NCBI RefSeq assembly: GCF_050920415.1
Contig: NZ_CP169309.1
DNA: 64,000 nt
Source of the DNA: Escherichia coli
Lineage (GTDB): Bacteria > Pseudomonadota > Gammaproteobacteria > Enterobacterales > Enterobacteriaceae
Direction: 5' to 3' (one strand)
The notes beneath the pieces are model-generated. The model ran no database searches. It was not told the origin of the DNA and saw only the letters and a program-made list of their open reading frames with translations. The position numbers and the translations under genes are program-made. Of the stretch, positions 35,501 to 60,324 are shown piece by piece (within the stretch, counting starts at the first letter, position 1; every line of letters starts with the position of its first letter).

Positions 35501-37536
35501 CCGTCTATGGCATTGGTCAGGTTAGTGATATTGCTGGTGTTGGTGGCGATGTTGGTGGTGTTGGTAGCGATATTGGTGGTGTTTGCCGCCACATCGTCCT
35601 TGGTCGCTTTCAGCTGAGAACCGTTAACGGCGTCGGTGCTGGTGTCAGAGAGCTCGCCAGCGGTGACGTTAGTGATTCTGTTGGTGGCGTTAGTACCGTG
35701 TGCAGCGGTGAATGCGCCTGTGGCGTCGTCCCATTTCAGGGCGTCTTCACCGAGGTTAGTCACCGTATCAGTCAGGTTAGTGATACTGGTGGTGTTGCCA
35801 GCCACTTCGCTCGTCAGGTTAGTGATGTTGGTGGTGTTAGCCGCCACATCGTCCTTGGTCGCTTTCAGCTGAGAACCGTTGACGGCGTCGGTGCTGGTGT
35901 CAGAGAGTTCGCCAGCGGTGACATTGGTGATTTTGCTGGTGACGTCGGTGCCGTGAGCGGCGCTGAACGCGGTGCCATTCCACAGCAGGGCATCATCATT
36001 GAGACTATCTACGGCATCGGTCAGGTTAGTGATATTGGTGGTGTTGCCAGCCACTTCGCTCGTCAGGTTAGTGATGTTGGTGGTGTTAGCCGCCACATCG
36101 TCCTTGGTCGCTTTCAGCTGAGAACCGTTGACGGCGTCGGTGCTGGTGGCTGAAAGGTCGCCAGCGGTAACGTTAGTGATTTTGCTGGTGGCATCTGTAC
36201 CATGTGCCGCACTATATCCCCTTTTAAGGTTGTCCCATTGTATCGTATTCGTGTTTAGATCCGCTAAGGCGTCGCCAACATTGCCATAAATACCATTTTT
36301 CAGTCTGTAATTCGGGGAAGTCACCACGCCCTGCGAATTGACGGTCGCTCCTCCACCAAGATTATCCGCTACTGACTTACTAATAGCATAAAGCTGTGAT
36401 CCATTGATGGCATCAGTACTGTCAGTGTCGATATCACCTTTTGCCATATTGACAATTTTTCGCTGAGCTGTTGTGTTACCCACGGAGACAGTATCCGCTT
36501 CAGTCGCGACAGAATCAGCACCCAGAGCAATTGAATTTTTACCTTGAGCAGTGGCCTGAGCACCAATTGCAATGCCATTTTCTAAACCGGCATAACTGCC
36601 TTGTCCAAGAGCAATGGCATTTGCCCCACCGGTAATACTCCCATTTCCCAGTGCGATTGCATTTACGCCGTCAGCTTTATTCCCCTGACCGATGGCAATG
36701 GCACCCGCAGCGATTGCCTGGCTTTGATTACCCAGAGCAATCGTATTATCGGTATTTGCAATACTCCCGTAGCCCAACGCGATACTGTTAAGCCCATTTG
36801 CCTCAGCTTTAGTACCCACTGCCGTTGCATTTTCAGCGGCTTCGGTCTCAGCGCCAACCGCAACCGCGTTTGCGGCGCTGGCAATGGACAGTCTACCTAA
36901 TGCAAGGCTGTCTTCACCACTAGCAGCACTCTCTCTACCTGCGGCAATGGAATTAGTTCCTGACGCCTTTGCCAGTCTCCCGAATGCAAGAGCATCCATA
37001 GCACTTGCTACTGTATCCTTGCCCAACGCTATGGTGCCTTCAGCTGTAGCTTGTGCAGAATTCCCCAGTGCAAGGGTATAATCGCTGGTCGCTTTAGCCG
37101 CACTGCCGATGGCGATTGAACGGCTACCCGTGGAAACCGTTGATTGCCCTAAGGCGACCGATCTTTCTCCTGACGAATTACTTGAGAAGCCAATTGCGGT
37201 ACTTCCCACCCCGGCATTAGCTCTTGCACCGACAGCAACACTCCCGCTACCCGTTGTGCCTGTACCCATTGTATCTGATGAGGCGACGGCCTCTTTACCA
37301 ATAGCAATCCAGTTATCACTCAGTGGCGTTTCGCCTGCAATTTCTTCTGCGCTTTTACCACCGTCAAGTGAAACCGAAGCATAGGCTCCAACTGATGAGA
37401 GTAACCCACCCGCAACCAGGGCAGAAATTAACAGCTTACTGCGCCCGCTCTTTTTGCCACGGCTCTTCGCCGTTTCGCTGGCAACGCTATAGCTGCCCGT
37501 CGCCGGATTCCAGATAACTTTAAATATTTTGTTCAT
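32560..37536 (-). CDS. upaG: Trimeric autotransporter adhesin (YadA-like; UpaG/EhaG-type), 1658 aa
   Basis: N-terminal extended signal peptide [18 protein letters not shown]...; long Gly/Ala/Ser/Thr/Asn-rich passenger with YadA-like head and neck repeats; C-terminal membrane anchor ...[31 protein letters not shown]. Confidence 0.85.
35150..36230 (-). repeat. In-frame tandem repeats (about 250 bp / 83 aa, roughly 4 copies) inside the adhesin passenger domain
   Basis: Protein repeat unit ...[61 protein letters not shown]... recurs; identical antisense ORFs in the track (35165, 35387, 35636) reflect the nucleotide repeats. Confidence 0.8.
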
Positions 37537-44616: not shown

Positions 44617-45195
44617 ATGGATCTGTTGATTGTTTTAACTTACGTGGCGCTGGCATGGGCGGTCTTTAAAATCTTCCGTATTCCGGTGAATCAGTGGACG
44701 CTGGCGACGGCGGCGCTGGGAGGCGTTTTTCTGGTAAGCGGTTTGATTTTGTTGATGAACTACAACCACCCTTACACTTTTACCGCACAGAAAGCGGTGA
44801 TTGCTATTCCCATCACGCCACAGGTGACGGGGATCGTGACTGAAGTCACTGACAAGAATAATCAGCTTATTCAGAAGGGCGAGGTGCTTTTTAAGCTCGA
44901 CCCGGTACGTTATCAGGCGCGAGTCGACAGACTTCAGGCTGACCTGATGACGGCGACGCATAATATAAAGACGCTGCGCGCGCAGCTCACTGAAGCGCAA
45001 GCCAATACCACCCAGGTTTCAGCGGAGCGTGACCGCTTGTTTAAAAATTATCAACGTTACCTGAAAGGCAGCCAGGCGGCGGTAAATCCGTTCTCAGAAC
45101 GTGATATCGACGATGCGCGGCAGAATTTTCTCGCGCAGGATGCGCTGGTGAAAGGTTCGGTGGCGGAACAGGCGCAAATCCAGAGCCAGCTCGAC
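44617..45195 (+). pseudogene. yibH: yibH 5' fragment (HlyD-family membrane fusion protein), 193 codons, interrupted by IS insertion
   Basis: [23 protein letters not shown]... reading frame runs into IS left end at 45196; the rest of the gene resumes at 47324. Confidence 0.85.
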
Positions 45196-45296
45196 TGTCA
45201 GCGCCAATGATATAAGACAGTAATTCACCATTTGGATTGTCCGCTCCACCCAACATGTTGTTTCCTTAAGGTTCCTACACCACAAAGGGAACACTC

Positions 45297-46343
45297 ATGC
45301 TGAGCAGAGAGGACTTTTACATGATAAAGCAAATGCGCCAGCAAGGTGCGTATATTGTTGATATTGCCACTCAGGTTGGTTGCTCTGAGCGGACTGTCAG
45401 ACGGTACCTGAAATACCCGGAACCTCCGGCCAGAAAAACACGCCACAAAATGGCCAAACTCAAGCCGTTCATGGACTATATCGACATGCGTCTGGCTGAG
45501 AATGTCTGGAACGGCGAGGTCATCCTGGCGGAAATCAAAGCGATGGGTTATACCGGTGGCCGTTCCATGTTGCGTTACTACATCCAGCCCAAACGTAAGA
45601 TGCGGCCATCGAAGAAAACGGTTCGCTTCGAAACTCAGCCCGGTTACCAGCTACAGCATGACTGGGGAGAAGTTGAGGCTGAGGTTGCCGGGCAACGATG
45701 CAGGGTTAACTTCGCGGTTAATACGCTGGGGTTCTCACGTCGCTTCCATGTCTTCGCGGCACCAAAGCAGGATGCTGAACATACCTATGAGTCACTGGTC
45801 CGCGCCTTTCGCTACTTCGGCGGCAGCGTGAAAACCGTGCTGGTCGATAACCAGAAAGCCGCAGTGCTGAAAAATAACAACGGGAAGGTGGTGTTCAACT
45901 CCGGGTTCCTGCTGCTGGCCGATCACTATGGCTTCCTGCCACGGGCCTGCCGTCCACGAAGGGCCAGAACCAAAGGTAAGGTGGAACGGATGGTGAAATA
46001 CCTCAAGGAAAACTTCTTCGTCCGGTACCGCCGGTTCGACAGCTTCGCCCATGTTAATCAGCTACTGGAGCAGTGGATGGCTGACGTTGCCGACAGGCGG
46101 GAACTTCGCCAGTTCAGGCAGACACCGGAACAGCGCTTCACGCAGGAACAGGTGCATCTGCAGGCGCTGCCAGGTACGGACTTCGATACCAGCTACTTCG
46201 ATATCCGTCATGTCTCCTGGGATGGCTATATCGAGGTTGGCGGGAACCGTTACAGCGTGCCGGAAAGCCTGTGTGGCCAGCCGGTATCAATACGGATCTC
46301 GCTGGATGATGAACTGCGATTTACAGTAATGAGCAACAGGTAG
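45297..46343 (+). pseudogene. istA: IS21-family transposase IstA, frameshifted near 3' end (348 aa as read; about 390 aa if the -1 shift around 46313-46343 is repaired, then ending at 46468)
   Basis: HTH N-terminus and integrase-core-like body; alternative frame open from 46313 to TGA at 46466-46468, which overlaps the istB ATG. Confidence 0.8.
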
Positions 46344-46455
46344 CATCGCACCGTCTCTGTTCGGCTGTATACGGCTGGCAGACCGTGCCGGAGCATCACG
46401 CCCCACTCTGGCAGCAGGTCAGTCAGGTGGAACACAGGCCGTTGAGTGCCTATGA

Positions 46456-47262
<807 letters not shown>

Positions 47263-47323
47263 TGACCAATAGCGGACATTAAAAATGGCGAAAAACGGCC
47301 AATAATCTTGGCGTTGACACGAC

Positions 47324-47881
47324 AGTATGGTTAACGGTGAGCAGTCGCAGATTGTCAGCTTAAGGGCGCAGCTTACCGAAGCGAAATATAACCTTGAGCA
47401 GACCGTCATTCGCGCGCCGAGCAATGGCTACGTTACTCAGGTACTGATCCGCCCAGGTACATACGCAGCTGCCTTGCCGCTACGTCCGGTGATGGTTTTC
47501 ATCCCCGAGCAAAAACGGCAAATTGTCGCCCAATTTCGGCAGAACTCGCTGTTACGTCTGAAACCCGGCGATGATGCGGAAGTAGTGTTTAACGCGCTAC
47601 CTGGGCAGGTGTTCCACGGCAAACTGACTAGTATTTTACCTGTCGTGCCAGGTGGTTCGTATCAGGCGCAGGGGGTACTGCAATCATTAACCGTCGTACC
47701 CGGCACGGACGGTGTGCTGGGAACCATCGAACTGGACCCTAACGCTGATATCGATGCTTTACCCGACGGCATCTACGCCCAGGTGGCAGTTTACTCCGAC
47801 CATTTCAGCCATGTTTCGGTGATGCGGAAGGTGCTGCTAAGAATGACCAGTTGGATGCATTATCTTTATTTGGATCATTGA
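47324..47881 (+). pseudogene. yibH: yibH 3' fragment (185 codons); joins in-frame with 44617-45195 to give 378 aa once IS and TSD are removed
   Basis: ...[32 protein letters not shown]... typical HlyD/EmrA-like; frame arithmetic confirms. Confidence 0.85.
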
Positions 47882-48185
47882 GGGGGGCGGGGGAGATTAT
47901 GGAACTTTGCTCCTTGTAAGGACTAATTATTTTTGCATATTACTTCATTGGCTGCGATGATTTTTCTTTAATATTCATTAGGTTGAGAAGTTCTTGATGA
48001 GTGTGCTCTCATTGGATTTTTTATCCGTCTTGTTCTGCCGCAGGATCAGACTATACATCGTCGAGATCGCAATGATTATGAATTGTTCCTCTGCGACGAT
48101 GCTAATCAAAAAAGTGCTGGAGTGCTTTTCCATCTATTGCGATGATGGTTTTATTATCTGAAGAATGACAGTCACACATCCAGCT

Positions 48186-48457
48186 AATAAAGAACTCGTG
48201 AAATTTTCCAGGACTGATACAGGACACAACTCTGGTAATGATATCGTGAATAGGAATACCATATTAAAAATCACCATATTGCTTCAACAAATCGAGATGA
48301 GTCTCACCAGAATCCTCTATATCTTCCCATCCTTCAGCTCCGGAAATGATGGCGAAAATAATCAGCACTAGGATATCTGATAATTTATACTCTACTTTCC
48401 AGACTTGTCTGTAATCGGGACAGTAGAAATATGCTCCATTAATTTTTTAAGTTCCAT
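48186..48457 (-). pseudogene. H-repeat (ISAs1-family) transposase N-terminal fragment, degraded copy 1 (frameshift and in-frame stop)
   Basis: Begins ATG-GAA-CTT-AAA-AAA (MELKKLM...) like copy 2 at 50276-50572 but carries a 1-nt deletion and a stop. Confidence 0.7.
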
Positions 48458-48915
48458 TTTTTCTCCTTGTTTATGTAAGGAGTGTCTGAATATATATAAG
48501 CTATGAAAACACTTATTAAATAATAAGGGATATCTTGATTATTGGACATTTAGTGCTAATTGTTTAGTGCAAAAAATCGGCGTTATATGGTCTTTACCTT
48601 TATTACCCTTGCTGTTTTCCTCCAGCCTATGAAAAGCCAGCTTCAGTAAATCGTACCGCCCGAACATTGTAAGATACAATTTACTGACAACTTAGTACAT
48701 TATTAATATCACATTTAAGCTTTTTTTTCAGATTATAAAGCCTGTCCACTTTATAATCTTTGCAATTATAAACGTATTCTTTTTTTGTTTTCATATCAAT
48801 GACACTAACCCCTCGCATGTTACTACCGTTGTCGTAATTGCTAAACACGGAGTACTTATATCCACTTTGAATAAAACTAACGCTAAAGTAATCCGTTTGA
48901 AATCTGGAGTAATGA

Positions 48916-49128
48916 TTATAAAAAATCCTGAATACATTGGTCCATCTGAAATGAATTGAAATTTATCCCATGCTGACTATTCATTTCATAAATCAACGTT
49001 TCACCAAAACTTGTTAATGACAAAGTTCCTTTGGATGTATTACATAAAAAATAATTATTTCCTGCGTTTAGAGTCCAGGGAATTCCAGATAAAAAAATAA
49101 AAATTAATGCTCTATCTATATTGCTCAT
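48916..49128 (-). CDS. Small hypothetical protein (70 aa) with N-terminal hydrophobic segment; candidate immunity protein for the orphan muramidase-like toxin domain
   Basis: ORF start overlaps the stop of the orphan toxin ORF by 17 bp; MSNIDRALIFIFLSGIPWTLNAG... Confidence 0.35.
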   Translation of the reverse strand: MSNIDRALIFIFLSGIPWTLNAGNNYFLCNTSKGTLSLTSFGETLIYEMNSQHGINFNSFQMDQCIQDFL

Positions 49129-50276
49129 AATTAGCCCTTATTCTGTCATCATATCCTCGCTGACTTTGCCCATTATAACATAGAGCAAAGTTAAGCCAAT
49201 CTTTATCTCTAATAGCACGCAATAATACAGGATTAGATTTTATGAAGTTAATGAATGCCGCCAGATGGTTTTTCTCTGACTCTGAAATCGATATTATAAA
49301 CTCTTCGGGCGAAGAGTACCCGGCAGCTTGGTAATTTGAAGCCAATATCTGAAATTTACCCCACGATGCCGATTTAAGCGCAGCTTGCTTATCTAAAACA
49401 TATGCACGAAGTAATTTTTGATATTGCTCCGATCGTGTTCCATAACCGCCAGAACGGCTGTTGGAAATATCAGGTTGAGAATCATACACACCATTCGTAT
49501 ATCGATGGAAATGATGTCTTTCAAAAAGAATTGAGGGGACGTAATCATCTTCTTGTTCAAATTTAAAATAGCTACCGGAACTACCAGTTTCAGTTTTTGC
49601 AACAGCTTTAATTGCAGCCACTTCGCATTGTAGTGTCCTTGCAGCATTTTCATAGTCTGCATCATCAATGGTATCTCCGTTATAAAATCGTAAAAATTCC
49701 AATGGAATAAGTTCATTATTTACAGGAGTTTTTGGGTAATTGCTATTATTAATAGCATTCAAAAACACAACCGGATGAAAATGCCACACAGCATCATCAC
49801 TATTAAACGGAGACACCCCGCTCATCCACTCCAGATCCAGCTGCCACTTTTCACAGTATGCCACTTCCTCGGGTCCAGATCTTTATAAAACCCTTCCCAG
49901 CGTCCCGTCGAGCGACCGCCGTACCACTCGCTGTGGTGTCTGACTGTCAGACGATTCACCACATTTCTCACCAGTGGTTCACGCACGGTCAGCGCCTGTC
50001 TGATCTCTTCCTCCGTCACTTTTCCATCACCGTCCTGATCCATACCCGCCATCAGCTCACGATAAAAGGGCGGTACCTGCTCATACAGCCACTCATCTCC
50101 CTGTTCTGCGGCACGGCTTATTGAGTCAAACGCTTCCGGCACCCATCCTTCGTACGGGCTGTACGTCATGTCACCGCTGCTGTTCTCCTCCAGCGGCTGA
50201 AAACCCAGCTTCAGTAAATCATACTGTCCGGCCTCTTCAACATCCTTCTGTGGCAGCCAGCCGGTTCCGGTGATAT
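49112..50276 (-). pseudogene. Displaced (orphan) effector 3' module: shared pre-toxin region with EF-hand loop plus a distinct C-terminal N-acetylmuramidase-like domain; 5'-truncated and carrying a 1-nt frameshift near 49866
   Basis: 49764-50276 is near-identical to 52116-52630 of the full-length effector; downstream domain has ...FERHHFHRYT... and ...SWGKFQILASNY... motifs; no start codon; two overlapping ORFs (49822-50391, 49112-49864). Confidence 0.75.
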
Positions 50277-50572
50277 TAAGCCGCCTCTGGTTTCCTTTTA
50301 ATAAAGCACTCGTGAAATTTTGCAGGACTGATACAGGATACAACTCTGGCAATGGTATCGTGAACAGGAATACCATTATCAAAATCACCATATTGCTTCA
50401 AAAAATCGAGATGTGTTTCCCCAAAATCCTCTATATCTTCCCAGCCTTCTGCACCCGAAATAACGGCACAAATAGTCAACAGTAGAATATCCGATAATTT
50501 ATGTTGCACTTTCCAGGCTTGTCTGTAATCGGGGATAATAGAAATATGTCCCATCAATTTTTTAAGTTCCAT
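50276..50572 (-). pseudogene. H-repeat (ISAs1-family) transposase N-terminal fragment, copy 2 (about 92 codons then truncated)
   Basis: [64 protein letters not shown]... matches the start of E. coli H-rpt proteins, then loses homology. Confidence 0.8.
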
Positions 50573-50873
50573 TTTGTTCTCCTTAATTATGTAAGGAGTA
50601 TTTGATCATGTATAAGCAATAAAAAACAGCTTTAGGTAATGAGGAATATCTCAATTTTCAAACATAAAATGCGAATTGTCTAGTACAAAAAAGCAGCGTT
50701 ACGTGATCTTTCCCTGCCTGCCTGTACGATATCCCTCAAAAATAATTTTCCAGTCAGTTATTCATGTCTAACTTAAAATCATAAAACATTTAAATTAATA
50801 ATAAACAAATTCAACCTAGTCGCATTATTATTTTAATAACACAGCATCGATTTCATAAAAAACTGCACAATGG

Positions 50874-51284
50874 TCATCCAGTCCATTTGCAATCAGTACC
50901 ATCATCATTATATGCCTCAATATTTTCTTCAAACTCAGTTGTTTTCCCACTTATTGATTTATAATGAAACAAATTAAATCTTGCACCTTGTGTGGAAACA
51001 ACATACAACCCATTAATTTTTCCATTTACAACCTCGCTCCATGCATAAGAAAATTCAGAAGGCCTGTCATCGAAAGTCACTTCTAATTTATTTATAAACG
51101 CAAGAGGTATAAATTTTGAGGATTTCTCATAAATCACATAACCTAAAAAAATATCGCCAGACGATATTTCAACAAACTTTAAATTTGTTTTCCCAGCGCT
51201 AAAACAGCCTACCGTTGTTTGTTGTTTAGCCAATAAACAACAAGGCACCAAACAAAACAGTAAAACCAATAAGTTAACTTTCAT
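50874..51284 (-). CDS. Candidate immunity protein (136 aa, cleavable signal peptide) for the upstream GH19-like effector
   Basis: MKVNLLVLLFCLVPCCLLA...; 5 bp downstream of effector stop; small secreted protein. Confidence 0.55.
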   Translation of the reverse strand: MKVNLLVLLFCLVPCCLLAKQQTTVGCFSAGKTNLKFVEISSGDIFLGYVIYEKSSKFIPLAFINKLEVTFDDRPSEFSYAWSEVVNGKINGLYVVSTQGARFNLFHYKSISGKTTEFEENIEAYNDDGTDCKWTG

Positions 51285-51289
51285 ATCAA

Positions 51290-53779
51290 TTACTCCAGTT
51301 CAGTTATTCGTCTCTCTACAAATGTGGATATATTCCTTTTTTCTATTCCATATACTTTTCTATCACCCTCACGCCCTTCCTGAGGAAACGGATGCAGGTC
51401 AATTAATTCTTTCGCCCTTCTATAACCTTTTAATGCTTCTTCGTTACTCTTGATCGTCCCTCTTCGGGAGCTATCAGGATCATGCCATATCCCCCATCCC
51501 AAAGCATATACTTTATTATCATATACGTCACTATCATCAAACAAGAAATCGTCGTTCATTGCTTTCTGATTTAAATGCTCGGCAGCAAGTGAGGTAACCA
51601 ATTTATTAAATATCGACAACCGTTCATCATAATGATTATACCCTCCATTAATCACTGCTGTAATTTTATTAAAATCATCATTTTTAGCATCTTCATTTAT
51701 TCTTTTGAATATATTGAAATACCAAAACGCAGATAATACGCAATGTGGGGAGGATATAAGTTTATCTCTTGCGGAATCTGAAGATGTTACGTCCTCATTG
51801 ATATATTCCCCATAGGCGGTGTAATTACTTTCCCCTGTAACTTGTATTAAGCCTCGGCCATACCACGGACTATATGAAGCTGATTCACCATTAATTTCTT
51901 TGGTATATCTAAAATAACCGCTCTCGTGAATAATTTGAGCAAGAAAATGGGCTTTTTCTCTACAAGTGGTCATACCAAACCGAATAAACCCTGCATTTAT
52001 ATCGTAGAGGTACCTTTTGAGAAGACCTTCACTTACTGCAGGAGCAACTTTTTTTAATTCATCTAATGTTATATCTCTGTTGCAAGCACACACAGATTTG
52101 GAATTAATAGCGTCCAAAAACACAACCGGATGAAAATGCCACACAGCATCATCACTATTAAACGGAGATACCCCGCTCATCCACTCCAGATCCAGCTGCC
52201 ACTTCTCACAGTATGCCACTTCCTCTGTGTCCAGATCTTTATAAAATCCTTCCCACCGCCCTGTCGAGCGCCCTCCGTACCATTCGCTGTGGTGTTTAAC
52301 TATCAGATGATTCACCACATTTCTCACCAGTGGTTCACGCACGGTCAGCGCCTGTCTGATCTCTTCCTCCGTCACTTTTCCATCACCGTCCTGATCCATA
52401 CCCGCCATCAGCTCACGATAAAAGGGCGGTACCTGCTCATACAGCCACTCATCTCCCTGTTCTGCGGCACGGCTTATTGAGTCAAACGCTTCCGGCACCC
52501 ATCCTTCGTACGGGCTGTACGTCATGTCACCGCTGCTGTTCTCCTCCAGCGGTTGAAAACCCAGCTTCAGTAAATCATACTGTCCGGCCTCTTCAACATC
52601 CTTTTGTGGCAGCCAGCCGGTTCCGGTGATATTAAACCACCACTGCTGCGATTCATCCGTGATCGGTGTCGTGGCTTCCCGCGGAAGAACGCGCTGAGCA
52701 CCCAGTGTGGCTGCGGTTGCGGTAAATACCTCCTGTCCCGGAACGGCCTGCCGGGTGTATAAAATTATCCCTTTTGGTGCCAGAACAGTCCGTTTTTCTC
52801 CCTTAACGCCTGCCGGGTTGGATAAGAACTTTGGCATATTCGGGTCTGTACTCAGAACCTCCAGATGGACGAACCACTCGCGCTCAATCTCACCGCTTCC
52901 CTCGCCAGGATAATCCTCGCATCCCATAAATCCGACCGGTGTTCCGGCACTGACTTTCCACTCTTCCGTTTCGTCGACCGTCTGTACCGAGTCAAAAATG
53001 CCTTTTGCCTTCGCCTTCTGCATCCACTCAGGCATCAGCATCTGTATTTCGCCATCTGACTCCATCAGATCCGGATCCAGGGTCACCCAGTACTGCTCAT
53101 TCCCCGGTTTATTGCCTTCCAGCAGGCGAACCAGTCCGAATGTCGTCAGGACCGGCTGGCCGTTATTGGTCACGTAAAAACGTCCGGTCCGGGATGACAC
53201 AAACCGATCTCCCGCATTAAGTGTCCTGTTTCCGCTGATTTTCGGGGGTATCCAGTACGTGGCATGATCTCCGCTTTCCTGCCCCTCGGGAAGGCCGTTC
53301 TTTCCCGGGATGTATCGGTGCAGCAATATGCCACCATGCCCGGTTTTAACTTTATAGCAGGGGGAGCCGGGATAATCGTTCACCGGGGCCAGATGCATAT
53401 AGAGACAGTAAAATTCCAGCCAGCTTTCTTTTTTTTGCGGGTCTGGCTGGCACTGCGATTTCACCAGAACAAATGTGCTGCTGTAACGGAGTTGCTGCCC
53501 TTTGTAGGTGCCTTTCAGGTAATCATTATTTATCCGGTACGCCGCAATGGTGCCATCGGCCATAAACTGAAGAGGAACCGGTTCTCCGGTAGCGGCGGTA
53601 TCCGGTTTCAGGGCTGATAACGGATTAGACACGTCACTGATATGTATCCCGCCGTGCCACAGCCCGTTTCCACCCAGCAGCCAGGTTCCGTGCGCTTCTT
53701 TGTCAATAAGCCGCATTATCTCATCCAGCGAGCGAAACTCTTTGCCTTCTTTATCCCTGATGGGATGGCTGATTTTCAT
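51290..53779 (-). CDS. VgrG-linked candidate T6SS effector, 829 aa: N-terminal domain of unknown function, central EF-hand-like Ca-binding loop, C-terminal GH19/lysozyme-like peptidoglycan hydrolase domain
   Basis: 9 bp downstream of vgrG stop; DQDGDGKVTEEE loop; C-terminal ...AHFLAQIIHESGYFRYTKE...YGRGLIQVTGESNYTAYG...LSAFWYFN... resembling the GH19 / COG3179 signature. Confidence 0.7.
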   Translation of the reverse strand: MKISHPIRDKEGKEFRSLDEIMRLIDKEAHGTWLLGGNGLWHGGIHISDVSNPLSALKPDTAATGEPVPLQFMADGTIAAYRINNDYLKGTYKGQQLRYSSTFVLVKSQCQPDPQKKESWLEFYCLYMHLAPVNDYPGSPCYKVKTGHGGILLHRYIPGKNGLPEGQESGDHATYWIPPKISGNRTLNAGDRFVSSRTGRFYVTNNGQPVLTTFGLVRLLEGNKPGNEQYWVTLDPDLMESDGEIQMLMPEWMQKAKAKGIFDSVQTVDETEEWKVSAGTPVGFMGCEDYPGEGSGEIEREWFVHLEVLSTDPNMPKFLSNPAGVKGEKRTVLAPKGIILYTRQAVPGQEVFTATAATLGAQRVLPREATTPITDESQQWWFNITGTGWLPQKDVEEAGQYDLLKLGFQPLEENSSGDMTYSPYEGWVPEAFDSISRAAEQGDEWLYEQVPPFYRELMAGMDQDGDGKVTEEEIRQALTVREPLVRNVVNHLIVKHHSEWYGGRSTGRWEGFYKDLDTEEVAYCEKWQLDLEWMSGVSPFNSDDAVWHFHPVVFLDAINSKSVCACNRDITLDELKKVAPAVSEGLLKRYLYDINAGFIRFGMTTCREKAHFLAQIIHESGYFRYTKEINGESASYSPWYGRGLIQVTGESNYTAYGEYINEDVTSSDSARDKLISSPHCVLSAFWYFNIFKRINEDAKNDDFNKITAVINGGYNHYDERLSIFNKLVTSLAAEHLNQKAMNDDFLFDDSDVYDNKVYALGWGIWHDPDSSRRGTIKSNEEALKGYRRAKELIDLHPFPQEGREGDRKVYGIEKRNISTFVERRITELE

Positions 53780-53788
53780 GTTCAGTCC

Positions 53789-55990
53789 TTATCGTGAGAA
53801 TCTTCCCGGCCGTTGTGGCGGTACCTTATCCTGCTGGGGAGGATCAAAGGCTTCCTGTACATTTTTCCGTGGTGGCTCCGCCCCTTCAGTTCCAGGTCCG
53901 CCATTGTCATAATCTGCCAGCGCTTTCAAAACCGCCGGTCGTAGTGTCGGCACCGGCGTTCCCGGACTACCGCCGCTATTGAGATTGATTTTCGGCCCGA
54001 CGATGTCCACGCCCCCTGAATGGATGACCACAAACGAACCACCCACCTTCAGGGTGATTTTACCGCCACTCTCCAGTACGATTTCATCCCGGACCTTCAT
54101 TCCCAGCGCACCGGTAATCTTCCTCGCCAGGTCGCCCTTCACCTCCAGACTGTGCGTTCCCTCCACCAGACTGATATGGTTCCCCGTCGTCTTATGCTCC
54201 TGCTTCCCTTCCACCGTCACTTTACGGTCGTTTCTGACATACAGGCCGTCATCGTGACTCACGCTCACCGTCCGGTCATTCGTCACCTTCAGCGTCTGGT
54301 CATTACGTACCGTTATGCGCCGGTCGTTCGCCACCGTGATACTCTGGTCGTGGCCCCCTTCTTTTCTGGTGCCGACCTCAACCGTCTGCCCCTTCACCAC
54401 CCTTATCTTCTGGTCGTTACCGATGGTCTCCGTATGGTCATGCTTCACGTCCGTCGTCCGGTCGTTAAGCACCTCCGTGTCCATGTTCTTCTGCGCGTGG
54501 ATATACACCTGCTCACTGTCCGTCGCATCCTCGAAACGCAGTTCATTAAAGCCGCTTCCTTTATAGGTCTTCGAGCGGATGGTCATCTGCGTCCGCGTGC
54601 CCGGTAAATCCCCCGGTGAACGGTTATCTTCATGGTAGGTCCGCCCCGTCACAATGGGCTGGTCCGGGTCGCCGTTCAGAAAGTCCACTATCACTTCCTG
54701 ACCCACACGCGGTATCGCCAGATTGCCGAACCCCGGTCCCGCCCATGCCTGCGACACCCGTATCCAGCATGAACTCTCCTCCGTCATCCCGTGATAACGG
54801 TCCCAGTGAAACTTCACCCGTACCCGGCCATGCTCGTCGCAGAATATCTCCTCGCCCTTCGGCCCGGTCACGATGGCACTCTGCGGGCCGTCCACCTTCG
54901 GCTTCGGCAGGGGCTGTGAGCGCCAGGTCCGGTCTGCCGGGATGACCGTGATATGGTTACTCAGTGTCGTTCCCCTCCCCTGGCTCCCGTGCAGCGCCTG
55001 CGGCTGGCTCCCCGTCAGCGTGCTGCTCACCACCTGCCACTCACGGTTCGGGTTCGCTCCCTGTACCGGATGCCCCGTCAGGGTGAACCGCCGTCCCGGC
55101 CACAGCGCCGGGGAGTTACTGATACCTGTGGCGGTTTCAGCACTGTTACGCAGCCCTTCCAGCCGGTAGCGGGTAAAGTCCTGACCATGCTGCTCGTCCT
55201 TGTAGCGCCCCGGCCAGTCCAGGATTTTGTACTGCTTCAGTTGCTCGTTGAGGTTTTCAGCATCCTCAATGTAAATACCCGGCCAGTCCGGCACCTTAAA
55301 CGTGTGGTCTTTTGAACGCACCTGCGAGGGCCGCACCTGCGCCTGGTAGCGGAACAGGCTGATGCACGCCGTCGTCACCTCACGGGTGTTCGGGTTAAAC
55401 GGTATCTCCCCGTACACCGGCAGGCCCGCCACATCATCGCACAGCGTGAGCGTCTGCTCCGGGCTGTCGTCAGCGTATCTGTCATAAAAGAAGATGCCTT
55501 CCTCCGCCCACAGCCGGGTCAGAAACGCCAGGTCGCTTTCACCGTACTGGACGCAGAACTCCCGTGCCGGGTGGCTCTCATAAAAGCGCGGCGTCCACTG
55601 CGTCACTCCGTCCTCGTTTAACAGCGTGGCGGAGATGGCCTGAATGTCCTGCTGCTGGAAGATTCGGTAGTTCTGCCGCAGCCCGCTGCGCCACAGGGGC
55701 GGGCGTATCTGAAGGTGGTACTGCATCTGCCAGCCGTTGTGCTCCTTCATGCCTAACCCCGACACCACACCGCTCACATAACGCAGCGCCGTGCCACCCT
55801 GCCAGATGGTCAGCACGGCCCCCTTCTCCAGCAGCTTCTCCGCCGTCTGGCGGAACGAGTCGCTGGCAACGTCCACATCCAGGACGAACGGCGATGAGTA
55901 TGCCTGCGTGAGGCGGAAATCCACCACCGCGAACGTCTCCGGCACCAGTCCGTCCACCGTCAGCGTAAAACGCAGCCCTTTTAATGACAT
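53789..55990 (-). CDS. vgrG: T6SS spike protein VgrG (copy B), 733 aa
   Basis: MSLKGLRFTLTVDGL...; gp27/gp5-like regions (...GQEVIVDFLNGDPDQPIVTGRTYH...) and C-terminal beta-helix repeats (VKHDHTETIG...ITVANDRRITVRNDQTLKVTNDRTVSV...). Confidence 0.9.
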   Translation of the reverse strand: MSLKGLRFTLTVDGLVPETFAVVDFRLTQAYSSPFVLDVDVASDSFRQTAEKLLEKGAVLTIWQGGTALRYVSGVVSGLGMKEHNGWQMQYHLQIRPPLWRSGLRQNYRIFQQQDIQAISATLLNEDGVTQWTPRFYESHPAREFCVQYGESDLAFLTRLWAEEGIFFYDRYADDSPEQTLTLCDDVAGLPVYGEIPFNPNTREVTTACISLFRYQAQVRPSQVRSKDHTFKVPDWPGIYIEDAENLNEQLKQYKILDWPGRYKDEQHGQDFTRYRLEGLRNSAETATGISNSPALWPGRRFTLTGHPVQGANPNREWQVVSSTLTGSQPQALHGSQGRGTTLSNHITVIPADRTWRSQPLPKPKVDGPQSAIVTGPKGEEIFCDEHGRVRVKFHWDRYHGMTEESSCWIRVSQAWAGPGFGNLAIPRVGQEVIVDFLNGDPDQPIVTGRTYHEDNRSPGDLPGTRTQMTIRSKTYKGSGFNELRFEDATDSEQVYIHAQKNMDTEVLNDRTTDVKHDHTETIGNDQKIRVVKGQTVEVGTRKEGGHDQSITVANDRRITVRNDQTLKVTNDRTVSVSHDDGLYVRNDRKVTVEGKQEHKTTGNHISLVEGTHSLEVKGDLARKITGALGMKVRDEIVLESGGKITLKVGGSFVVIHSGGVDIVGPKINLNSGGSPGTPVPTLRPAVLKALADYDNGGPGTEGAEPPRKNVQEAFDPPQQDKVPPQRPGRFSR
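54085..54930. repeat. About 0.85-kb block near-identical to 58422-59267 (internal vgrG segment shared by both paralogs, offset 4337 bp)
   Basis: Antisense ORFs 54020-54607 and 54616-54945 are letter-identical to parts of 58204-58944 and 58953-59534; VgrG proteins identical over about 270 residues. Confidence 0.85.
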
Positions 55991-56145
55991 GATGACCTCC
56001 CTGGTATTGCTACAGGAAAAAGTAATTAACCGATATTGACCGTACCTTCTGATATTCTCTCACTGATTCATTATCTGTATTTCCCATGAACATTCTCATT
56101 TCAACAGGAAAACCAACGAATTGTAGCCATGACAATAAGTTAACA

Positions 56146-57075
56146 TTAATAATTCCTCAACGAATAAGGAGGAGATGCCCTGTCCCCATCAATAGTAACC
56201 ACGACCTGATTTGATCTTATTTTGAATATATTATCATTACCGCCATGATAGCCAAATCGTGCTAAAAAATCCTGAAATAGACCAGGTCCTCTATAAGGTC
56301 CACAGATTCTCCAAACCCGCCACTCCTCTATGCCATACGTTATTTTATCTATAGGATTAGTACACTCTCTTTCTGCCCGCCAGTTCATAATAGAAAGAAA
56401 ATACTCATATATATATTGTTCTGCAAACCACTCTTGATTAACTATTGTAAATTCTACCGTCCCTATATTATAACGATGAATGCCCGGTAAAAAGGCATAA
56501 TAATCGTTCAATGTGACATCAAAGGATAGCTCTTTCCCTGGTAATATCTCGCGCCAAACAGATTTACTTTTCCATTCACCAAAGCTACATTTTGTTTTTT
56601 TTAAAAAATCCAACTGAATGTTATCCATTATCGGTATAAACACACCACTACACAAGGAAGAGTAAGGCCCGCCGTTAACGTCAAGAGGAAGAGTTAGTCG
56701 ATGAACAAAATAAGATCCCTGGCTTTTATTCGATAAAACCACTGCAGCTGCTACAATATTTTCTTTCTGATGCACGGAAAGATGAAGATATATTTTATTT
56801 TTATCCTGATTATACTGACTCTCATTTTTACTGATAGTATAATATTGAAAAACAGCATAGGCTGAAAGATCATCATAATAATCATAATAATTAAGCCTTG
56901 TCGGTTCTACACGAGGATAGACACCAAGTTTTTCCATTACTCCATTCCAATGTAACTTCCCATATCTGTAATGAACCGCATAATCGCCAGAGATATCATA
57001 AGCAAATATTGGATGCACCCAAGAAAAAAAAGCAATAAAAACAATCCATCTAGCAAGCATATACTCCCCCGTCAA
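56146..57075 (-). CDS. Candidate immunity protein (309 aa, N-terminal signal peptide) for the upstream HExxH effector
   Basis: MLARWIVFIAFFSWVHPIFAYD... signal peptide; 9 bp downstream of the metallopeptidase-like gene; Trp/Tyr-rich. Confidence 0.5.
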   Translation of the reverse strand: MTGEYMLARWIVFIAFFSWVHPIFAYDISGDYAVHYRYGKLHWNGVMEKLGVYPRVEPTRLNYYDYYDDLSAYAVFQYYTISKNESQYNQDKNKIYLHLSVHQKENIVAAAVVLSNKSQGSYFVHRLTLPLDVNGGPYSSLCSGVFIPIMDNIQLDFLKKTKCSFGEWKSKSVWREILPGKELSFDVTLNDYYAFLPGIHRYNIGTVEFTIVNQEWFAEQYIYEYFLSIMNWRAERECTNPIDKITYGIEEWRVWRICGPYRGPGLFQDFLARFGYHGGNDNIFKIRSNQVVVTIDGDRASPPYSLRNY

Positions 57076-57084
57076 ATAAAAGCA

Positions 57085-57930
57085 TCAATATGGTACAGGA
57101 ATCTCGAAATAACGTTCGATATTATATGCATTCTGAAACAGTTCTGATTTTTTATCATTTTTTAATTTAGTGGCATGAGCAATATATTCGTCACCTGTAC
57201 TATACTCTATATCTACCGGCATATCTTCCGTCCACATGCCTCCAAACTTAAGTGAATCCCCGTACCTTATAAAGTGAGATAGTTCATGGCAGAGTGTCGA
57301 TGCCTTAGAGTTTTCCCCAGTGAATGGCCTATCTATAAATCTTTGTCCTATAGTTATACTTACCAAACTTTTAAAGCTTCCAGATTTTACACCCAAAATC
57401 TGATCGTAAGTTACATTGGCAGCATAAGCGTCATTATCTGTACAATTCACAAAGTTACCAATTTTGGGCCTGATTACGTCTTTGTCAACATATTCATTAC
57501 CCCCTTTGTCATTAAGAACAAGATTACAATTGGCATCACGTTTGAGGAAATGGTCATGAACGGTAACGTCTACACAATCACCTTCCACAGATAATTCCCC
57601 ACATATCTCATACAGGCGAGTAACGCCATTTCTCATATAATCCCTTGCCTTTATATTCTCTGTAAACAGAGTATTACGCCCCCCGAAAGGGAACTTTAAT
57701 TTAATATAAGTATTTCCATCAATGCCAAATATATTTATAAATTCCTGATTTTGTTCCGCCCCCCATTTATCACCAAGATCTTCTACTCTTTTTTTCAATA
57801 CAGCCATCTGCGCCTTCAGAGCCTCTCTCATCATTATTTTAAAATCATTAGTAATTTTCCCCTCCTTTAAAACTACACACTGTTCACCACTCTGGCTTTT
57901 TCCGCTCGTACTACCCTTTTCATCTCCCAT
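57085..57930 (-). CDS. VgrG-linked candidate effector, 281 aa, with HExxH zinc-metallopeptidase motif (TLCHELSHF)
   Basis: Follows vgrG copy A by 81 bp; HELSH motif in C-terminal third; no signal peptide. Confidence 0.6.
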   Translation of the reverse strand: MGDEKGSTSGKSQSGEQCVVLKEGKITNDFKIMMREALKAQMAVLKKRVEDLGDKWGAEQNQEFINIFGIDGNTYIKLKFPFGGRNTLFTENIKARDYMRNGVTRLYEICGELSVEGDCVDVTVHDHFLKRDANCNLVLNDKGGNEYVDKDVIRPKIGNFVNCTDNDAYAANVTYDQILGVKSGSFKSLVSITIGQRFIDRPFTGENSKASTLCHELSHFIRYGDSLKFGGMWTEDMPVDIEYSTGDEYIAHATKLKNDKKSELFQNAYNIERYFEIPVPY

Positions 57931-58011
57931 ATAAATCCTCCTTGGTATATATTTTCACTACAAACCCTGTTCCATTTATGCAAAAACACGCCAATTACAG
58001 GCGGTCACTCT

Positions 58012-60324
58012 CTATTCATTAATCCCTCCCCATATCATATCGATATTCAAATGCAACAATCTGACGTCTATTGTCTGCTCGCTGTCAGTGGTGAATATTT
58101 CCGTATACCCATCCTTATCCGTTTCTCCGCGGGTCTGCGTGCCGTCCTCAAAGAAGGCAATGTAGCGTGTCTCTGAATACGGTATCCCGTCATCGTCTGT
58201 AAAATGGAACTGGAGAGTATATTTTTCAGGGTTCTCATCATCATTCTCATCCTCCAGCGCCTCCAGTACAACCGGTTGCAGCGTCGATACTGGCGTCCCC
58301 GGACCTCCCCCACCATTCAGGTTTATCTTCGGCCCCACTATATCCACGCCGCCAGAGTGTATCACCACGAACGAACCGCCCGCTTTCAGGCTTATCTGGC
58401 TGCTGCTCTCCAGCACGATATCCCCGTCCACCTTTATCCCCAGCGCGCCACTCACCTTCTCCGCCAGGTCACCCTTCACCTCCAGGCTGTGTTTCCCCTC
58501 CACCAGGCTGATATGGTTTCCCGTCGTCTTATGCTCCTGCTTCCCTTCCACCGTCACTTTACGGTCGTTTCTGACATACAGGCCGTCATCGTGACTCACG
58601 CTCACCGTCCGGTCATTCGTCACCTTCAGCGTCTGGTCATTACGTACCGTTATGCGCCGGTCGTTCGCCACCGTGATACTCTGGTCGTGACCCCCTTCTT
58701 TTCTGGTGCCGACCTCAACCGTCTGCCCCTTCACCACCCTTATCTTCTGGTCGTTACCGATGGTCTCCGTATGGTCATGCTTCACGTCCGTCGTCCGGTC
58801 GTTAAGCACCTCCGTGTCCATGTTCTTCTGCGCGTGGATATACACCTGCTCACTGTCCGTCGCATCCTCGAAACGCAGTTCATTAAAGCCGCTTCCTTTA
58901 TAGGTCTTCGAGCGGATGGTCATCTGCGTCCGCGTGCCCGGTAAATCCCCCGGTGAACGGTTATCTTCATGGTAGGTCCGCCCCGTCACAATGGGCTGGT
59001 CCGGGTCGCCGTTCAGAAAGTCCACTATCACTTCCTGACCCACACGCGGTATCGCCAGATTGCCGAACCCCGGTCCCGCCCATGCCTGCGACACCCGTAT
59101 CCAGCATGAACTCTCCTCCGTCATCCCGTGATAACGGTCCCAGTGAAACTTCACCCGTACCCGGCCATGCTCGTCGCAGAATATCTCCTCACCCTTCGGC
59201 CCGGTCACGATGGCACTCTGCGGGCCGTCCACCTTCGGCTTCGGCAGCGGCGCGTGACGCCACGTCCTGTCTGCCGGTATCACCTCAAACTGATTGCTCA
59301 GTGTCGTCCCTTCACCGTGACTCCCGTGCAGCGCCTGCGGCTGTTCTCCCCGCAGTGTGCTTCCCACAACCTGCCATTCCCGGTTCAGCGTCGCTGACGG
59401 ATGGCCCGTCAGCCGGAACCGCGTTCCCGGCCACAGCCGCGCCGTGTTACACACCCCGCTCGCCGTCTCCGCCCCGTTCCGCCACCCTTCCGTCTGGTAA
59501 CGCGCAAAATCCTGGCCATGCTGCTCATCCTTGAAACGCCCCGGATAATCAAATATCTCGTACTGCGTTCCCTGTCCGTTCAGGCTCTCCCCGTCATGGC
59601 TGTAGTACCCCGGCCACCCCGGCGTTTTGAACGTATAATCCTGCGTCTCCACCGACGCCACGCTTATCTGCGCACGGTAACGGAAGTCGCGGATGTACTC
59701 TGTCGTGCCTCCGGTCGTGGTATTCGGGTTAAACGCCAGCGCCCCCATTCCCGTCAGCCCCGCCACGTCATCACACACCGCCAGCTTCTGTTCCGGCCCG
59801 TCCTGACTGCAGCGTTCATAAAAGAAGATACCTTCCTCCGCCCACAGCCGGGTCAGGAATGTCAGGTCGCTCTCCCCGTACTGCACGCAGAACTCCCGCG
59901 CCGGGTGCGCCTCATAGAACAGCGGCATCCACGCCGTCACCCCGTTCTCTTCAAGAAGCTGCGCTGATATCGTCTGAATGTCCTGCTGCTGGAAGATACG
60001 GAAGTTCTGCCGTAACCCTGCCCGCCACAGCGGCGGGCTGATGCTCAGGGAATAACGCATCTGCCAGTCGTTGTTCTCACCGAGCTGCACCTCTGTCACG
60101 ATACCGCTGACGTAACGCTGTGCAGTGTCGCCCTGCCAGACCGTCAGCACCGCGCTTTTCTCCAGAAAATCTTCTGCCGTCAGGTCAGACAGTCCGCTGG
60201 CGATATCCACATCCAGGATGAACGGTGTGCAGTGGTGCTGGTACAGACGGAAGCTCACCACCGCCGTCGCCATCTCCACAATACCGTCCACCGACAGCGT
60301 GAAACGTAATCCTTCTGCTGCCAT
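58012..60324 (-). CDS. vgrG: T6SS spike protein VgrG (copy A) with about 100-aa C-terminal extension, 770 aa from MAAEGLRFTL (the ORF in the track starts 11 codons upstream)
   Basis: Same domain order as copy B; extra C-terminal tail ...EKYTLQFHFTDDDGIPYSETRYIAFFEDGTQTRGETDKDGYTEIFTTDSEQTIDVRLL... Confidence 0.9.
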   Translation of the reverse strand: MAAEGLRFTLSVDGIVEMATAVVSFRLYQHHCTPFILDVDIASGLSDLTAEDFLEKSAVLTVWQGDTAQRYVSGIVTEVQLGENNDWQMRYSLSISPPLWRAGLRQNFRIFQQQDIQTISAQLLEENGVTAWMPLFYEAHPAREFCVQYGESDLTFLTRLWAEEGIFFYERCSQDGPEQKLAVCDDVAGLTGMGALAFNPNTTTGGTTEYIRDFRYRAQISVASVETQDYTFKTPGWPGYYSHDGESLNGQGTQYEIFDYPGRFKDEQHGQDFARYQTEGWRNGAETASGVCNTARLWPGTRFRLTGHPSATLNREWQVVGSTLRGEQPQALHGSHGEGTTLSNQFEVIPADRTWRHAPLPKPKVDGPQSAIVTGPKGEEIFCDEHGRVRVKFHWDRYHGMTEESSCWIRVSQAWAGPGFGNLAIPRVGQEVIVDFLNGDPDQPIVTGRTYHEDNRSPGDLPGTRTQMTIRSKTYKGSGFNELRFEDATDSEQVYIHAQKNMDTEVLNDRTTDVKHDHTETIGNDQKIRVVKGQTVEVGTRKEGGHDQSITVANDRRITVRNDQTLKVTNDRTVSVSHDDGLYVRNDRKVTVEGKQEHKTTGNHISLVEGKHSLEVKGDLAEKVSGALGIKVDGDIVLESSSQISLKAGGSFVVIHSGGVDIVGPKINLNGGGGPGTPVSTLQPVVLEALEDENDDENPEKYTLQFHFTDDDGIPYSETRYIAFFEDGTQTRGETDKDGYTEIFTTDSEQTIDVRLLHLNIDMIWGGINE

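Follow-up and report, generated by a model that had tools for sequence, protein, structure and literature searches.

H-repeat (H-rpt) sequences are known components of Rhs elements, as cited in PMC3032704, where it is also stated that transposition of H-rpt has never been observed. In Escherichia coli K-12, H-rpt, or ISEc1, is found as ydcC at RhsE, as ybfQ/ybfL/ybfD at RhsC and as yibU at RhsA (Zhao et al. 1993, J Bacteriol 175:2799, as cited in PMC3032704). ISAs1 members are reported to be enriched at chromosomal orphan type VI secretion (T6SS) islands (Fisher P = 1.2e-30, PMC13098142), and the displacement of Rhs C-termini, together with the arrays of orphan toxin and immunity genes found with it, has been described by Jackson et al. 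2009 (PMC2935791) and Poole et al. 2011 (PMC3150448). The occurrence of ISEc1/H-rpt relics after toxin/immunity cassettes is a long-described, ordinary arrangement. The locus described here leaves the current understanding of Rhs/T6SS island evolution unchanged and adds a small concrete example to the known pattern of ISAs1 at orphan T6SS islands. It also corrects an earlier reading, in that the repeated "unit" found at this locus is the insertion sequence (IS) from its own inverted repeat inward and not a piece of cassette flank.

The window, a 64-kb stretch of E. coli DNA, matches NZ_CP169399.1 at 100% with concordant PGAP features, and its site is the yibF-yibH interval, which in K-12 is home to rhsA and which is occupied here by a type VI secretion "vgrG island" (Table 1). 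Read along the minus strand, vgrG is followed by an 829-aa effector gene with a GH19-type cell-wall hydrolase end, an immunity gene, a 157-nt spacer and a first ISEc1 fragment (copy B), after which come the orphan piece of an effector gene ending in a muramidase domain, its frameshifted immunity gene, a 58-nt remnant of an effector, a second ISEc1 fragment (copy A) and yibH, the latter split by an IS21-like ISEc62 at 45297-47262. The effector gives a Pfam EF-hand match at E = 4.8e-4 and a weak match to Glyco_hydro_19, its residues 605-732 match PDB endolysins (down to E = 1.7e-13), and its orthologues carry the PGAP names "glycoside hydrolase family 19 protein" or "chitinase". No Rhs/YD match was found for it in NCBIfam or Pfam, and the effector is not an Rhs protein, although the locus seems to work like an Rhs array. 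The product of the gene that follows (imm1), WP_000867650.1, has a signal-like segment at its N-terminus and is common to all three genomes that carry the cassettes; going by its position, imm1 would confer immunity to the current effector. The spacer between imm1 and copy B is not IS sequence and is conserved in genome RMDEC465.

Table 1. Features of the vgrG island between vgrG and yibH (positions in the window; ISEc1 nucleotides counted from its left end).
Feature	Position	Strand	Basis or remark
yibH 3' fragment, core-genome boundary of the island	47321..47881	+	PGAP annotation
Copy A, decayed ISEc1-like relic, nt ~2-654 (~647 nt), adjoining the yibH 3' end	47953..48599	-	
Effector stub, 58 nt, conserved middle region ("GRYDLLKLAFHRLEENSKG"), abutting the left end of copy A	48605..48662	-	
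imm2, putative orphan immunity gene, pseudogene in this strain	48681..49128	-	comparison with RMDEC465 gene
Orphan toxin end, N-acetylmuramidase-domain ORF, 250 aa, GTG start	49112..49864	-	Pfam PF11860
Orphan effector conserved segment, 543 bp, with 1-nt deletion, fused upstream to copy B	49748..50289	-	
27-nt piece, ISEc1 nt 728-754, linking nt 419 to the effector codons "ITGTGW"	50274..50300	-	
Copy B, ISEc1 nt 1-419: IRL CAGGGAAAGATCA at 50716, 144-nt leader, transposase codons 1-91	50298..50716	-	
AT-rich spacer, 157 nt, from imm1 to the left end of copy B	50717..50873	-	alignment
imm1, putative immunity gene of the current effector, 136 aa	50874..51284	-	ORF list
Full-length effector, 829 aa, downstream of vgrG	51290..53779	-	EF-hand mid-protein, GH19-like lysozyme end
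Matching conserved segment within the full-length effector gene	52103..52645	-	alignment and repeat families
vgrG (tssI), module head	53789..55990	-	TIGR03361, 589 bits

The extent of ISEc1 was taken from full reference copies: the K-12 ydcC element and the full copy of RMDEC465 match over 1291 bp in unrelated contexts, with IRL CAGGGAAAGATCA and IRR CAGGGCAAGATTA as inverted repeats. Ends of ISAs1-family elements begin CAGGG. The start of ISEc1 lies 144 nt upstream of the transposase ATG (at 50716 in copy B and at ~48599 in copy A), and because the 1291-bp match spans this 144-nt leader in unrelated contexts, the leader is IS sequence; what the preliminary description had taken for some 170 bp of flank is the ISEc1 left end, IRL plus leader. 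Each of the two copies is a fragment rather than an intact element: it keeps only the N-terminal part of an ISAs1-type DDE transposase, lacks the ISEc1 right end and falls short of the full length of an ISAs1 element (~1.2-1.5 kb) and of its single uninterrupted transposase ORF. The suggested search for an intact H-rpt came back empty within the 64-kb window, which holds no other ISEc1-related sequence; six places on the chromosome of the strain match window positions 50100-50500. Target-site duplications are absent at the two full copies examined (K-12 ydcC and RMDEC465). Their absence fits recombination joints, but would equally fit old, eroded insertions. No shared target motif is visible just outside the ISEc1 left ends in four contexts.

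Copy B, with its transposase ATG at 50572, shows 95.2% identity across 419 nt with the K-12 ydcC element (E = 0.0), and many genomes hold intact ISEc1/ydcC copies that agree with its nt 217-419 (203 nt, 50298-50500) at 100%. Against the full copy of RMDEC465 the identity is 98.6%, outside flank included. The 91-aa translation scores 78.9 bits (E = 3.8e-22) against NCBIfam NF033564 (ISAs1 family transposase, cutoff 70 bits), against which the reference K-12 YdcC reaches 416 bits. At its inner end copy B runs into the 27-nt piece (blastn 92.6% over 27 nt), both joints of which show microhomology (TAA and GGYGGYT..AATA). The joint between nt 419 and nt 728-754 is also present in RMDEC465 and N96. 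Copy B is a young fragment that lost nt 420-727 and, beyond the 27-nt piece, was fused by a microhomology deletion to about codon 395 of the next effector.

Copy A matches ISEc1 at 80.5% identity over 630 nt (E = 6e-161 against the K-12 ydcC element) and begins at a degenerate IRL (AAGGTAAAGACCA) at ~48599. Its reading frame is broken by the loss of one nucleotide after codon ~13, by stops at codons ~65 and ~119 and by additional indels, its differences are spread over all codon positions, and tblastn recovers YdcC residues 5-155 at 61-71% identity with frame changes. PGAP annotates 47961-48457 as "ISAs1 family transposase, frameshifted; internal stop", whereas copy B is merely called "incomplete", so that the lower copy is, as first described, the more decayed one. 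Alignment with K-12 yibU and RMDEC465 identifies the distal part of copy A as the orthologue of the K-12 pseudogene yibU. A yibU-type relic lies beside yibH in 26 of 40 rows sampled at even spacing from 5,401 matching genomes, which puts it as fixed in about two-thirds of E. coli genomes. The left end of copy A abuts the 58-nt stub, the reference of a three-copy repeat family (D5) whose other two members are 83% identical to it. The stub is what is left of an effector copy that is older still and that took up the insertion of copy A, itself old.

The orphan module between the two fragments carries a 5'-truncated effector, which shares 543 bp with the full-length gene before the sequences diverge into different ends, Muramidase PF11860 in the orphan (E = 6.5e-46; PGAP name "N-acetylmuramidase family protein") and GH19-like in the full-length gene. 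The two shared segments are 95.9% identical with a longest exact run of 244 bp, the indel between them sitting opposite position 52228 of the main effector, and the pair is also recovered by the repeat search (families D1 and D4). Behind each toxin end lies a small ORF, for which the family search gave no match and whose immunity role is putative. The one behind the muramidase end, imm2, is 99.4% identical (2 gap columns) to an intact 149-aa RMDEC465 gene and is intact in N96 too; in this strain it has two 1-nt deletions (~48967 and ~48926) and PGAP annotates no gene in the region.

The exact arrangement of this locus occurs in 3 of 5,426 complete genomes. In RMDEC465, an extra cassette of 4,076 bp, measured from one IS start to the other, lies between imm1 and the orphan also found here. 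It opens with a full ISEc1, whose right end abuts the middle of a vgrG; this vgrG fragment is followed by the genes for a pyocin-type effector and its immunity protein and by a partial ISEc1, and the ends of the cassette fall in ISEc1 nt 1-419 direct repeats. At 32 of the 35 sites that are informative, copy B agrees with the full copy of RMDEC465, the agreement reaching as far as nt 405. A one-step homologous deletion from an RMDEC465-like ancestor was considered and not established: it fits poorly because the informative sites confine the exchange to the last 14 nt before the shared junction, and gene conversion or further events would otherwise have to be invoked. The cassettes occur in three genomes only, which makes any order of events tentative. 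Elsewhere, co-oriented full and partial ISEc1 copies follow modules at K-12 RhsC (a tandem of ISEc1 nt 1-381, a full copy and nt 25-913|1225-1291), at K-12 RhsE, at T6SS-1/yafV of A30 and at ydcC of FDAARGOS_144, and all ISEc1 copies at the six loci examined point the same way as the T6SS or rhs genes there. The view that the fragments mark module boundaries is borne out by these comparisons, the relics lying at the distal ends of successive modules and the RMDEC465 cassette ending in ISEc1 repeats. ISEc1 is not required at every boundary, since the boundary between the upstream vgrG-M35 module and the vgrG of Table 1 has no ISEc1 trace.

The preliminary description explained the two fragments by a unit of truncated H-rpt and flank that was duplicated within the locus and then served as a homology patch for module displacement. 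Two ISAs1-family 5' fragments are indeed present, each matching ISEc1 far beyond chance: the repeat search pairs 48185-48599 with 50299-50715, both on the minus strand (families D2, D6 and D3), global alignment gives 345 identical columns out of 419 (82.3%, 6 gap columns), and in favor of a duplicated unit the two copies align from ~144 nt upstream of the ATG until both end at 48185/50299, and both sit just past an immunity gene. The alignment, however, stops at 48185/50299 because the breakpoint of copy B lies there. This end is an internal deletion joint and not a shared truncation, and copy A extends ~230 nt further as IS sequence; truncation at the same codon does not hold, with copy A continuing to 47953 (nt ~654) and copy B stopping at nt 419 (50298) plus nt 728-754. 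Homology does reach beyond the transposase fragment, through the leader to IRL, but none was found outside IRL, where the 100-nt and 30-nt flanks score at shuffle level (121 of 300 and 271 of 500 shuffles reach the observed outer-flank score). Given the different end points, the 82% identity (longest exact match 21 bp), the 95-100% identity of copy B to live ISEc1 copies and the orthology of copy A with yibU, A and B are independent relics of different age and not duplicates of one truncated unit, and we consider duplication after truncation extremely unlikely. The two copies would also be too diverged to recombine efficiently in this genome, and hence a poor homology patch for each other. Copy B breaks at ISEc1 nt 419, close to nt ~426, where the relic yibU of K-12 begins; a breakpoint hot spot near nt 419-427 was considered, and this proximity is treated as coincidence because relics at other loci end at many positions, among them nt 155, 381, 519, 532, 654 and 913.

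The reading that we favor, with a probability of roughly 0.7, is that A and B are independent ISEc1 relics in a stack of cassettes for which co-oriented ISEc1 provides portable homology. Cassettes of vgrG/effector, immunity gene and ISEc1 would be stacked from the vgrG side, leaving older ones nearer to yibH, and the co-oriented ISEc1 copies at their ends would allow gain or loss of whole cassettes, with later illegitimate deletions trimming the IS and the displaced genes. The greater age and decay of the module nearest to yibH is supported. Within the locus, the 543-bp effector repeat appears to be the obvious and stronger recombination substrate for toxin displacement or switching, and a toxin end could be swapped through it as in Rhs C-terminal displacement. 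Of the proposed homology patch, what stands is that ISEc1 coincides with changes in module content; the pairing of A with B does not, the effector repeat being the better partner. This same superiority of the effector repeat lends some weight to a tentative and less probable alternative, namely that the fragments are passive scars of independent ISEc1 insertions that eroded afterwards (AT-rich DNA behind immunity genes may have been a preferred target), with turnover proceeding only through the conserved sequences of effectors, vgrG and Rhs. That copy A abuts the effector stub with its left end is as expected for insertion into an effector gene, the full copy of RMDEC465 ends in mid-vgrG, the varied end points of relics at other loci resemble random erosion, and Jackson et al. 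(PMC2935791) account for displacement without any IS. Mere insertion and erosion nevertheless sits uneasily with two full copies devoid of target-site duplications, with the uniform co-orientation at six loci, with a cassette bounded exactly by ISEc1 nt 1-419 repeats and with the report that H-rpt transposition has never been seen (PMC3032704).

The missing target-site duplications could also be turned toward an active role, in which the ISEc1 transposase or ends capture or deliver modules, for example in one-ended or site-directed events, and such a vehicle would agree with the strict co-orientation of IS and module at several loci, where the left end of the IS points toward the immunity gene, and with the strong statistical link between ISAs1 and orphan T6SS islands (PMC13098142). 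We hold this to be highly improbable, as the left ends share no motif outside the IS in four contexts, both copies in the window are dead fragments, the joints to displaced genes are microhomology deletions rather than IS ends and no transposition activity is reported (PMC3032704). It is likewise quite improbable, in our estimate, that ISEc1 is a dedicated, always co-oriented end-piece of E. coli T6SS/Rhs cassettes with an active part in capturing, stacking or exchanging them. If true, this would explain why ISEc1 follows modules at the RhsA, RhsC, RhsE/ydcC and T6SS-1/yafV sites, and also the missing target duplications and the never-seen solo transposition.

Portable homology of the kind that we favor has a counterpart outside T6SS and Rhs islands: Xiang, Hobbs and Reeves reportedly described in 1994, in J Bacteriol, IS-mediated recombination at H-repeat elements in the O-antigen (rfb) clusters of Salmonella. 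There, reportedly, and here, an H-rpt lies at the joint of gene blocks of different origin and is the proposed site of recombination; locus and cargo differ, and the evidence here is one 4-kb cassette indel, with ISEc1 repeats at its bounds, among three genomes. Like Rhs displacement arrays, the present locus has a full-length toxin gene and its immunity gene followed by a 5'-truncated copy with another toxin end and its own putative immunity gene, with the oldest remnants furthest downstream. Unlike in those arrays, the effector has no Rhs/YD-repeat core (no NCBIfam match, and in Pfam only EF-hand and weak GH19), its conserved region is an EF-hand-containing middle segment, and an IS relic separates the modules, which the published circle model of Rhs displacement does not have. 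The closest parallel is with the H-rpt of the K-12 Rhs islands. It is the same 1291-bp element, copy B being 95% identical to ydcC, it lies downstream of the final toxin/immunity genes of an rhs/vgrG island in the orientation of the island genes, and full and partial copies are mixed. The present island departs from those of K-12 in having vgrG-linked non-Rhs effectors and no rhs gene, and in that copy B is deletion-fused to a displaced effector fragment. Copy A, finally, occupies the same chromosomal site as K-12 yibU, of which it is the longer form, and this long form reveals the former state of the yibU pseudogene.

The region lies between yibF/selA on one side and yibH/yibI/mtlA on the other, at the site that in K-12 is occupied by rhsA-yibA-yibJ-yibG-yibS-yibW-yibV-yibU. 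E. coli strain MFDS1022581 (NZ_CP169399.1) matches window positions 47300–56000 at 100% identity, and comparison record L006 (record positions 97338–147000) shares the window's coordinates. Upstream, at 56146–60324 (minus), is a second vgrG module. Elsewhere, between lldP and yibL, a large YadA-like trimeric autotransporter gene (4,977 bp; 32560–37536, minus) and a DUF3251 gene are found.

Features of the vgrG cassettes and ISEc1 relics, in window coordinates
Feature	Position	Strand	Basis or remark
vgrG of upstream module	58012–60324	minus	annotation in related strains
M35-type metallopeptidase of upstream module	57085–57930	minus	annotation in related strains
Hypothetical gene of upstream module	56146–57060	minus	annotation in related strains
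vgrG	55990–53789	minus	TIGR03361, 589 bits
829-aa main effector, EF-hand motif and GH19/endolysin-like end	53779–51290	minus	Pfam; PDB endolysins
Putative imm1, 136-aa ORF, signal-like N terminus	51284–50874	minus	ORF list
Spacer, 157 nt	50873–50717	minus	alignment
H-rpt copy B	50716–50274	minus	match to ISEc1
Effector sequence, 543 nt, 1-nt deletion	50289–49748	minus	95.9% identical to 52645–52103
Different toxin end (orphan), Muramidase PF11860	49864–49112	minus	E = 6.5e-46
imm2, second small gene	49128–48681	minus	two 1-nt deletions here; intact (149 aa) in RMDEC465, N96
Effector-region stub, 58 nt	48662–48605	minus	repeat family; two other members 83% identical to stub
H-rpt copy A	48599–47953	minus	match to ISEc1
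yibH 3' end	ends at 47881	plus	PGAP annotation

Copies A and B are fragments of H-rpt/ISEc1, an ISAs1-family element. A repeat search pairs 48185–48599 with 50299–50715, and on global alignment the two are 82.3% identical over 419 columns, with no exact run longer than 21 bp. Both match the K-12 ydcC H-rpt/ISEc1 element (E = 0.0 for B, 6e-161 for A), the translation of copy B exceeds the NCBIfam ISAs1 transposase cutoff, and PGAP labels both as ISAs1 family transposase pseudogenes. The repeat and its H-repeat identity, as given in the preliminary description, thus hold, as does the greater decay of copy A, in which codons ~65 and ~119 are stops and there are several indels. ISEc1 comprises exactly the 1291 bp over which the K-12 ydcC copy and a full-length one in the related strain RMDEC465 match, their contexts being unrelated; this match begins CAGGGAAAGATCA and finishes at the complement of CAGGGCAAGATTA, with the transposase ATG 144 nt inside the left end, from which IS nt are counted. 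The left end lies at 50716 in copy B and, degenerate, at about 48599 in copy A, and alignment of 30 and 100 nt outside these ends gave shuffle-level scores only. The shared flank of about 170 bp is therefore the 144-nt IS leader plus ~20 non-homologous nt, and the two units align for 419 columns within the IS but not beyond its left end. Copy B consists of IS nt 1–419, then 27 nt (IS nt 728–754), then effector, the first joint passing from nt 419 to nt 728 via TAA microhomology and the second from nt 754 to the effector via a GGYGGYT..AATA patch at the codons for ITGTGW. Past the end of A/B homology, copy A is still readable (48184–47953) as IS nt 420–654; the impression of truncation at the same codon is due solely to the breakpoint of copy B, which ends the alignment. 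The 189-aa ORF that holds the orphan's EF-hand segment (49822–50391) begins, in an alternative frame, within copy B and continues through the joint.

At 50298–50500 copy B shows no difference (100% identity) from intact ISEc1/ydcC copies of many genomes, and with the full copy of RMDEC465 it shares 98.6% identity, the outside 157-nt spacer included. Copy A has diverged further, to ~80% identity with ISEc1; its codon positions 1/2/3 differ at 16%, 12% and 22%. When the yibH 3' end plus copy A was used as population query, and 40 evenly spaced rows were sampled from the 5,401 matching genomes, query positions 1–477 (window 47700–48176) were matched at ~94.8% identity in 26 rows, K-12 derivatives and O157:H7 included, and the yibH part alone in 12; the long form of the copy A relic occurs in 3 genomes only. 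By alignment, K-12 yibU corresponds to IS nt ~426–654, the distal part of this relic. These differing ages and end points, and the relationship of A to yibU, show that A, a yibU-type relic, and B, near-identical to modern ISEc1, are independent relics rather than the duplicated copies of one truncated unit proposed earlier. The stretch 47700–48176 differs from most E. coli by more than typical core divergence, which may point to import of the yibH end of the locus from a divergent lineage. In the window yibH (44617–47881, plus) is split by the IS21-like ISEc62 (istA 45297–46469; istB 46469–47262, frameshifted).

The 543-bp effector repeat has a longest exact run of 244 bp, and the toxin ends diverge after a conserved stretch ending ...HPVVFL(D/N)AIN (effector residues about 396–575). 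Main-effector residues 605–732 match PDB endolysins (E = 1.7e-13); the N-terminal ~395 aa have no Pfam or NCBIfam family match, and by eye motifs including WHGGIHISD, YCLYMHL and WFVHLEVL may resemble a degenerate LytM/M23 fold. In the orphan, a 5'-truncated effector piece, a 1-nt deletion near 49871 (opposite main-effector position 52228) puts the EF-hand segment (ORF 49822–50391) and the muramidase end (ORF 49112–49864) out of frame. The putative immunity gene imm2 is a pseudogene in the window strain, with deletions at about 48967 and 48926, where PGAP annotates nothing.

Among 5,426 complete genomes, only MFDS1022581, N96 and RMDEC465 carry the copy-B joint, and the GH19 and muramidase cassettes are each confined to these three as well. 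N96 has the module order of the window, with ISCro1 inserted in the muramidase end and yibH and imm2 intact. In RMDEC465, where yibH is likewise intact, imm1 and the orphan are separated by an additional segment (L004:786–5303). It begins with a full-length ISEc1 interrupted by an internal stop, whose right end is followed immediately by a vgrG 3' fragment; next come a pyocin-type effector (S-type pyocin domain), an immunity gene (bacteriocin immunity protein) and a second, partial ISEc1 that differs from the full copy by ~8% and has the same 419/728–754/effector joint as copy B. The starts of the two IS copies are 4,076 bp apart and the sequence either side of the extra segment is present in the window at 98–99% identity, so that the strains differ by a cassette indel with ISEc1 nt 1–419 repeated directly at its two ends. 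To this extent the suggested marking of module boundaries is borne out; as homology patch for each other, A and B, at 82% identity and with so short an exact run, are poor recombination partners. Nor is a one-step exchange clean: of 35 informative sites copy B shares 32 with the full copy of RMDEC465, out to nt 405, which leaves only the last 14 nt for a single homologous exchange from an RMDEC465-like arrangement to that of the window. The preliminary observation is thus partly confirmed and its interpretation partly supported.

As the joints show, illegitimate microhomology events trimmed both copy B and the displaced effector; copy A inserted into an older effector copy, and decay rises toward yibH. 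Cassettes would have been added from the vgrG side, with ISEc1 at their ends providing portable co-oriented homology at which whole cassettes may be gained or lost. The 543-bp repeat is the likely substrate for a toxin-end swap in the window genome; such a swap would put the muramidase end beside a broken immunity gene, and only an exchange between the orphan's 1-nt deletion and the toxin end (49748–49870) would keep it in frame.

Cassettes at other sites are also followed by co-oriented ISEc1 copies, full or partial: K-12 RhsC (nt 1–381, a full copy, and nt 25–913 followed by 1225–1291, in tandem), K-12 RhsE (ydcC), the yafV end of T6SS-1 in A30 (where two relics follow the Tle1 module) and the ydcC locus of FDAARGOS_144 (where a full copy follows the vgrG module and is itself followed by an orphan M35 fragment and a 3' relic). 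FDAARGOS_144 also holds a left-end fragment, nt 1–155 (L010:9526–9680), between PAAR and yncG, upstream of a PAAR-vgrG module, so that relics also occur on the proximal side of an island. No ISEc1 trace was found at the boundary of the vgrG-M35 module (60324–56146) and the next vgrG in the window, and no target duplications around the two full ISEc1 copies examined. Relic end points vary widely across loci, which rules out a breakpoint hot spot in ISEc1. As a kind of feature, rhs/vgrG cassettes with H-rpt/ISEc1 relics at the distal end are long known and already annotated; where PMC3032704 cites Zhao et al. 1993, H-rpt is described as a component of Rhs elements whose transposition was never observed. 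Published work finds ISAs1 elements over-represented at chromosomal orphan T6SS islands (PMC13098142), and C-terminal displacement has been modelled as homologous recombination in the conserved core, with circular intermediates (PMC2935791).
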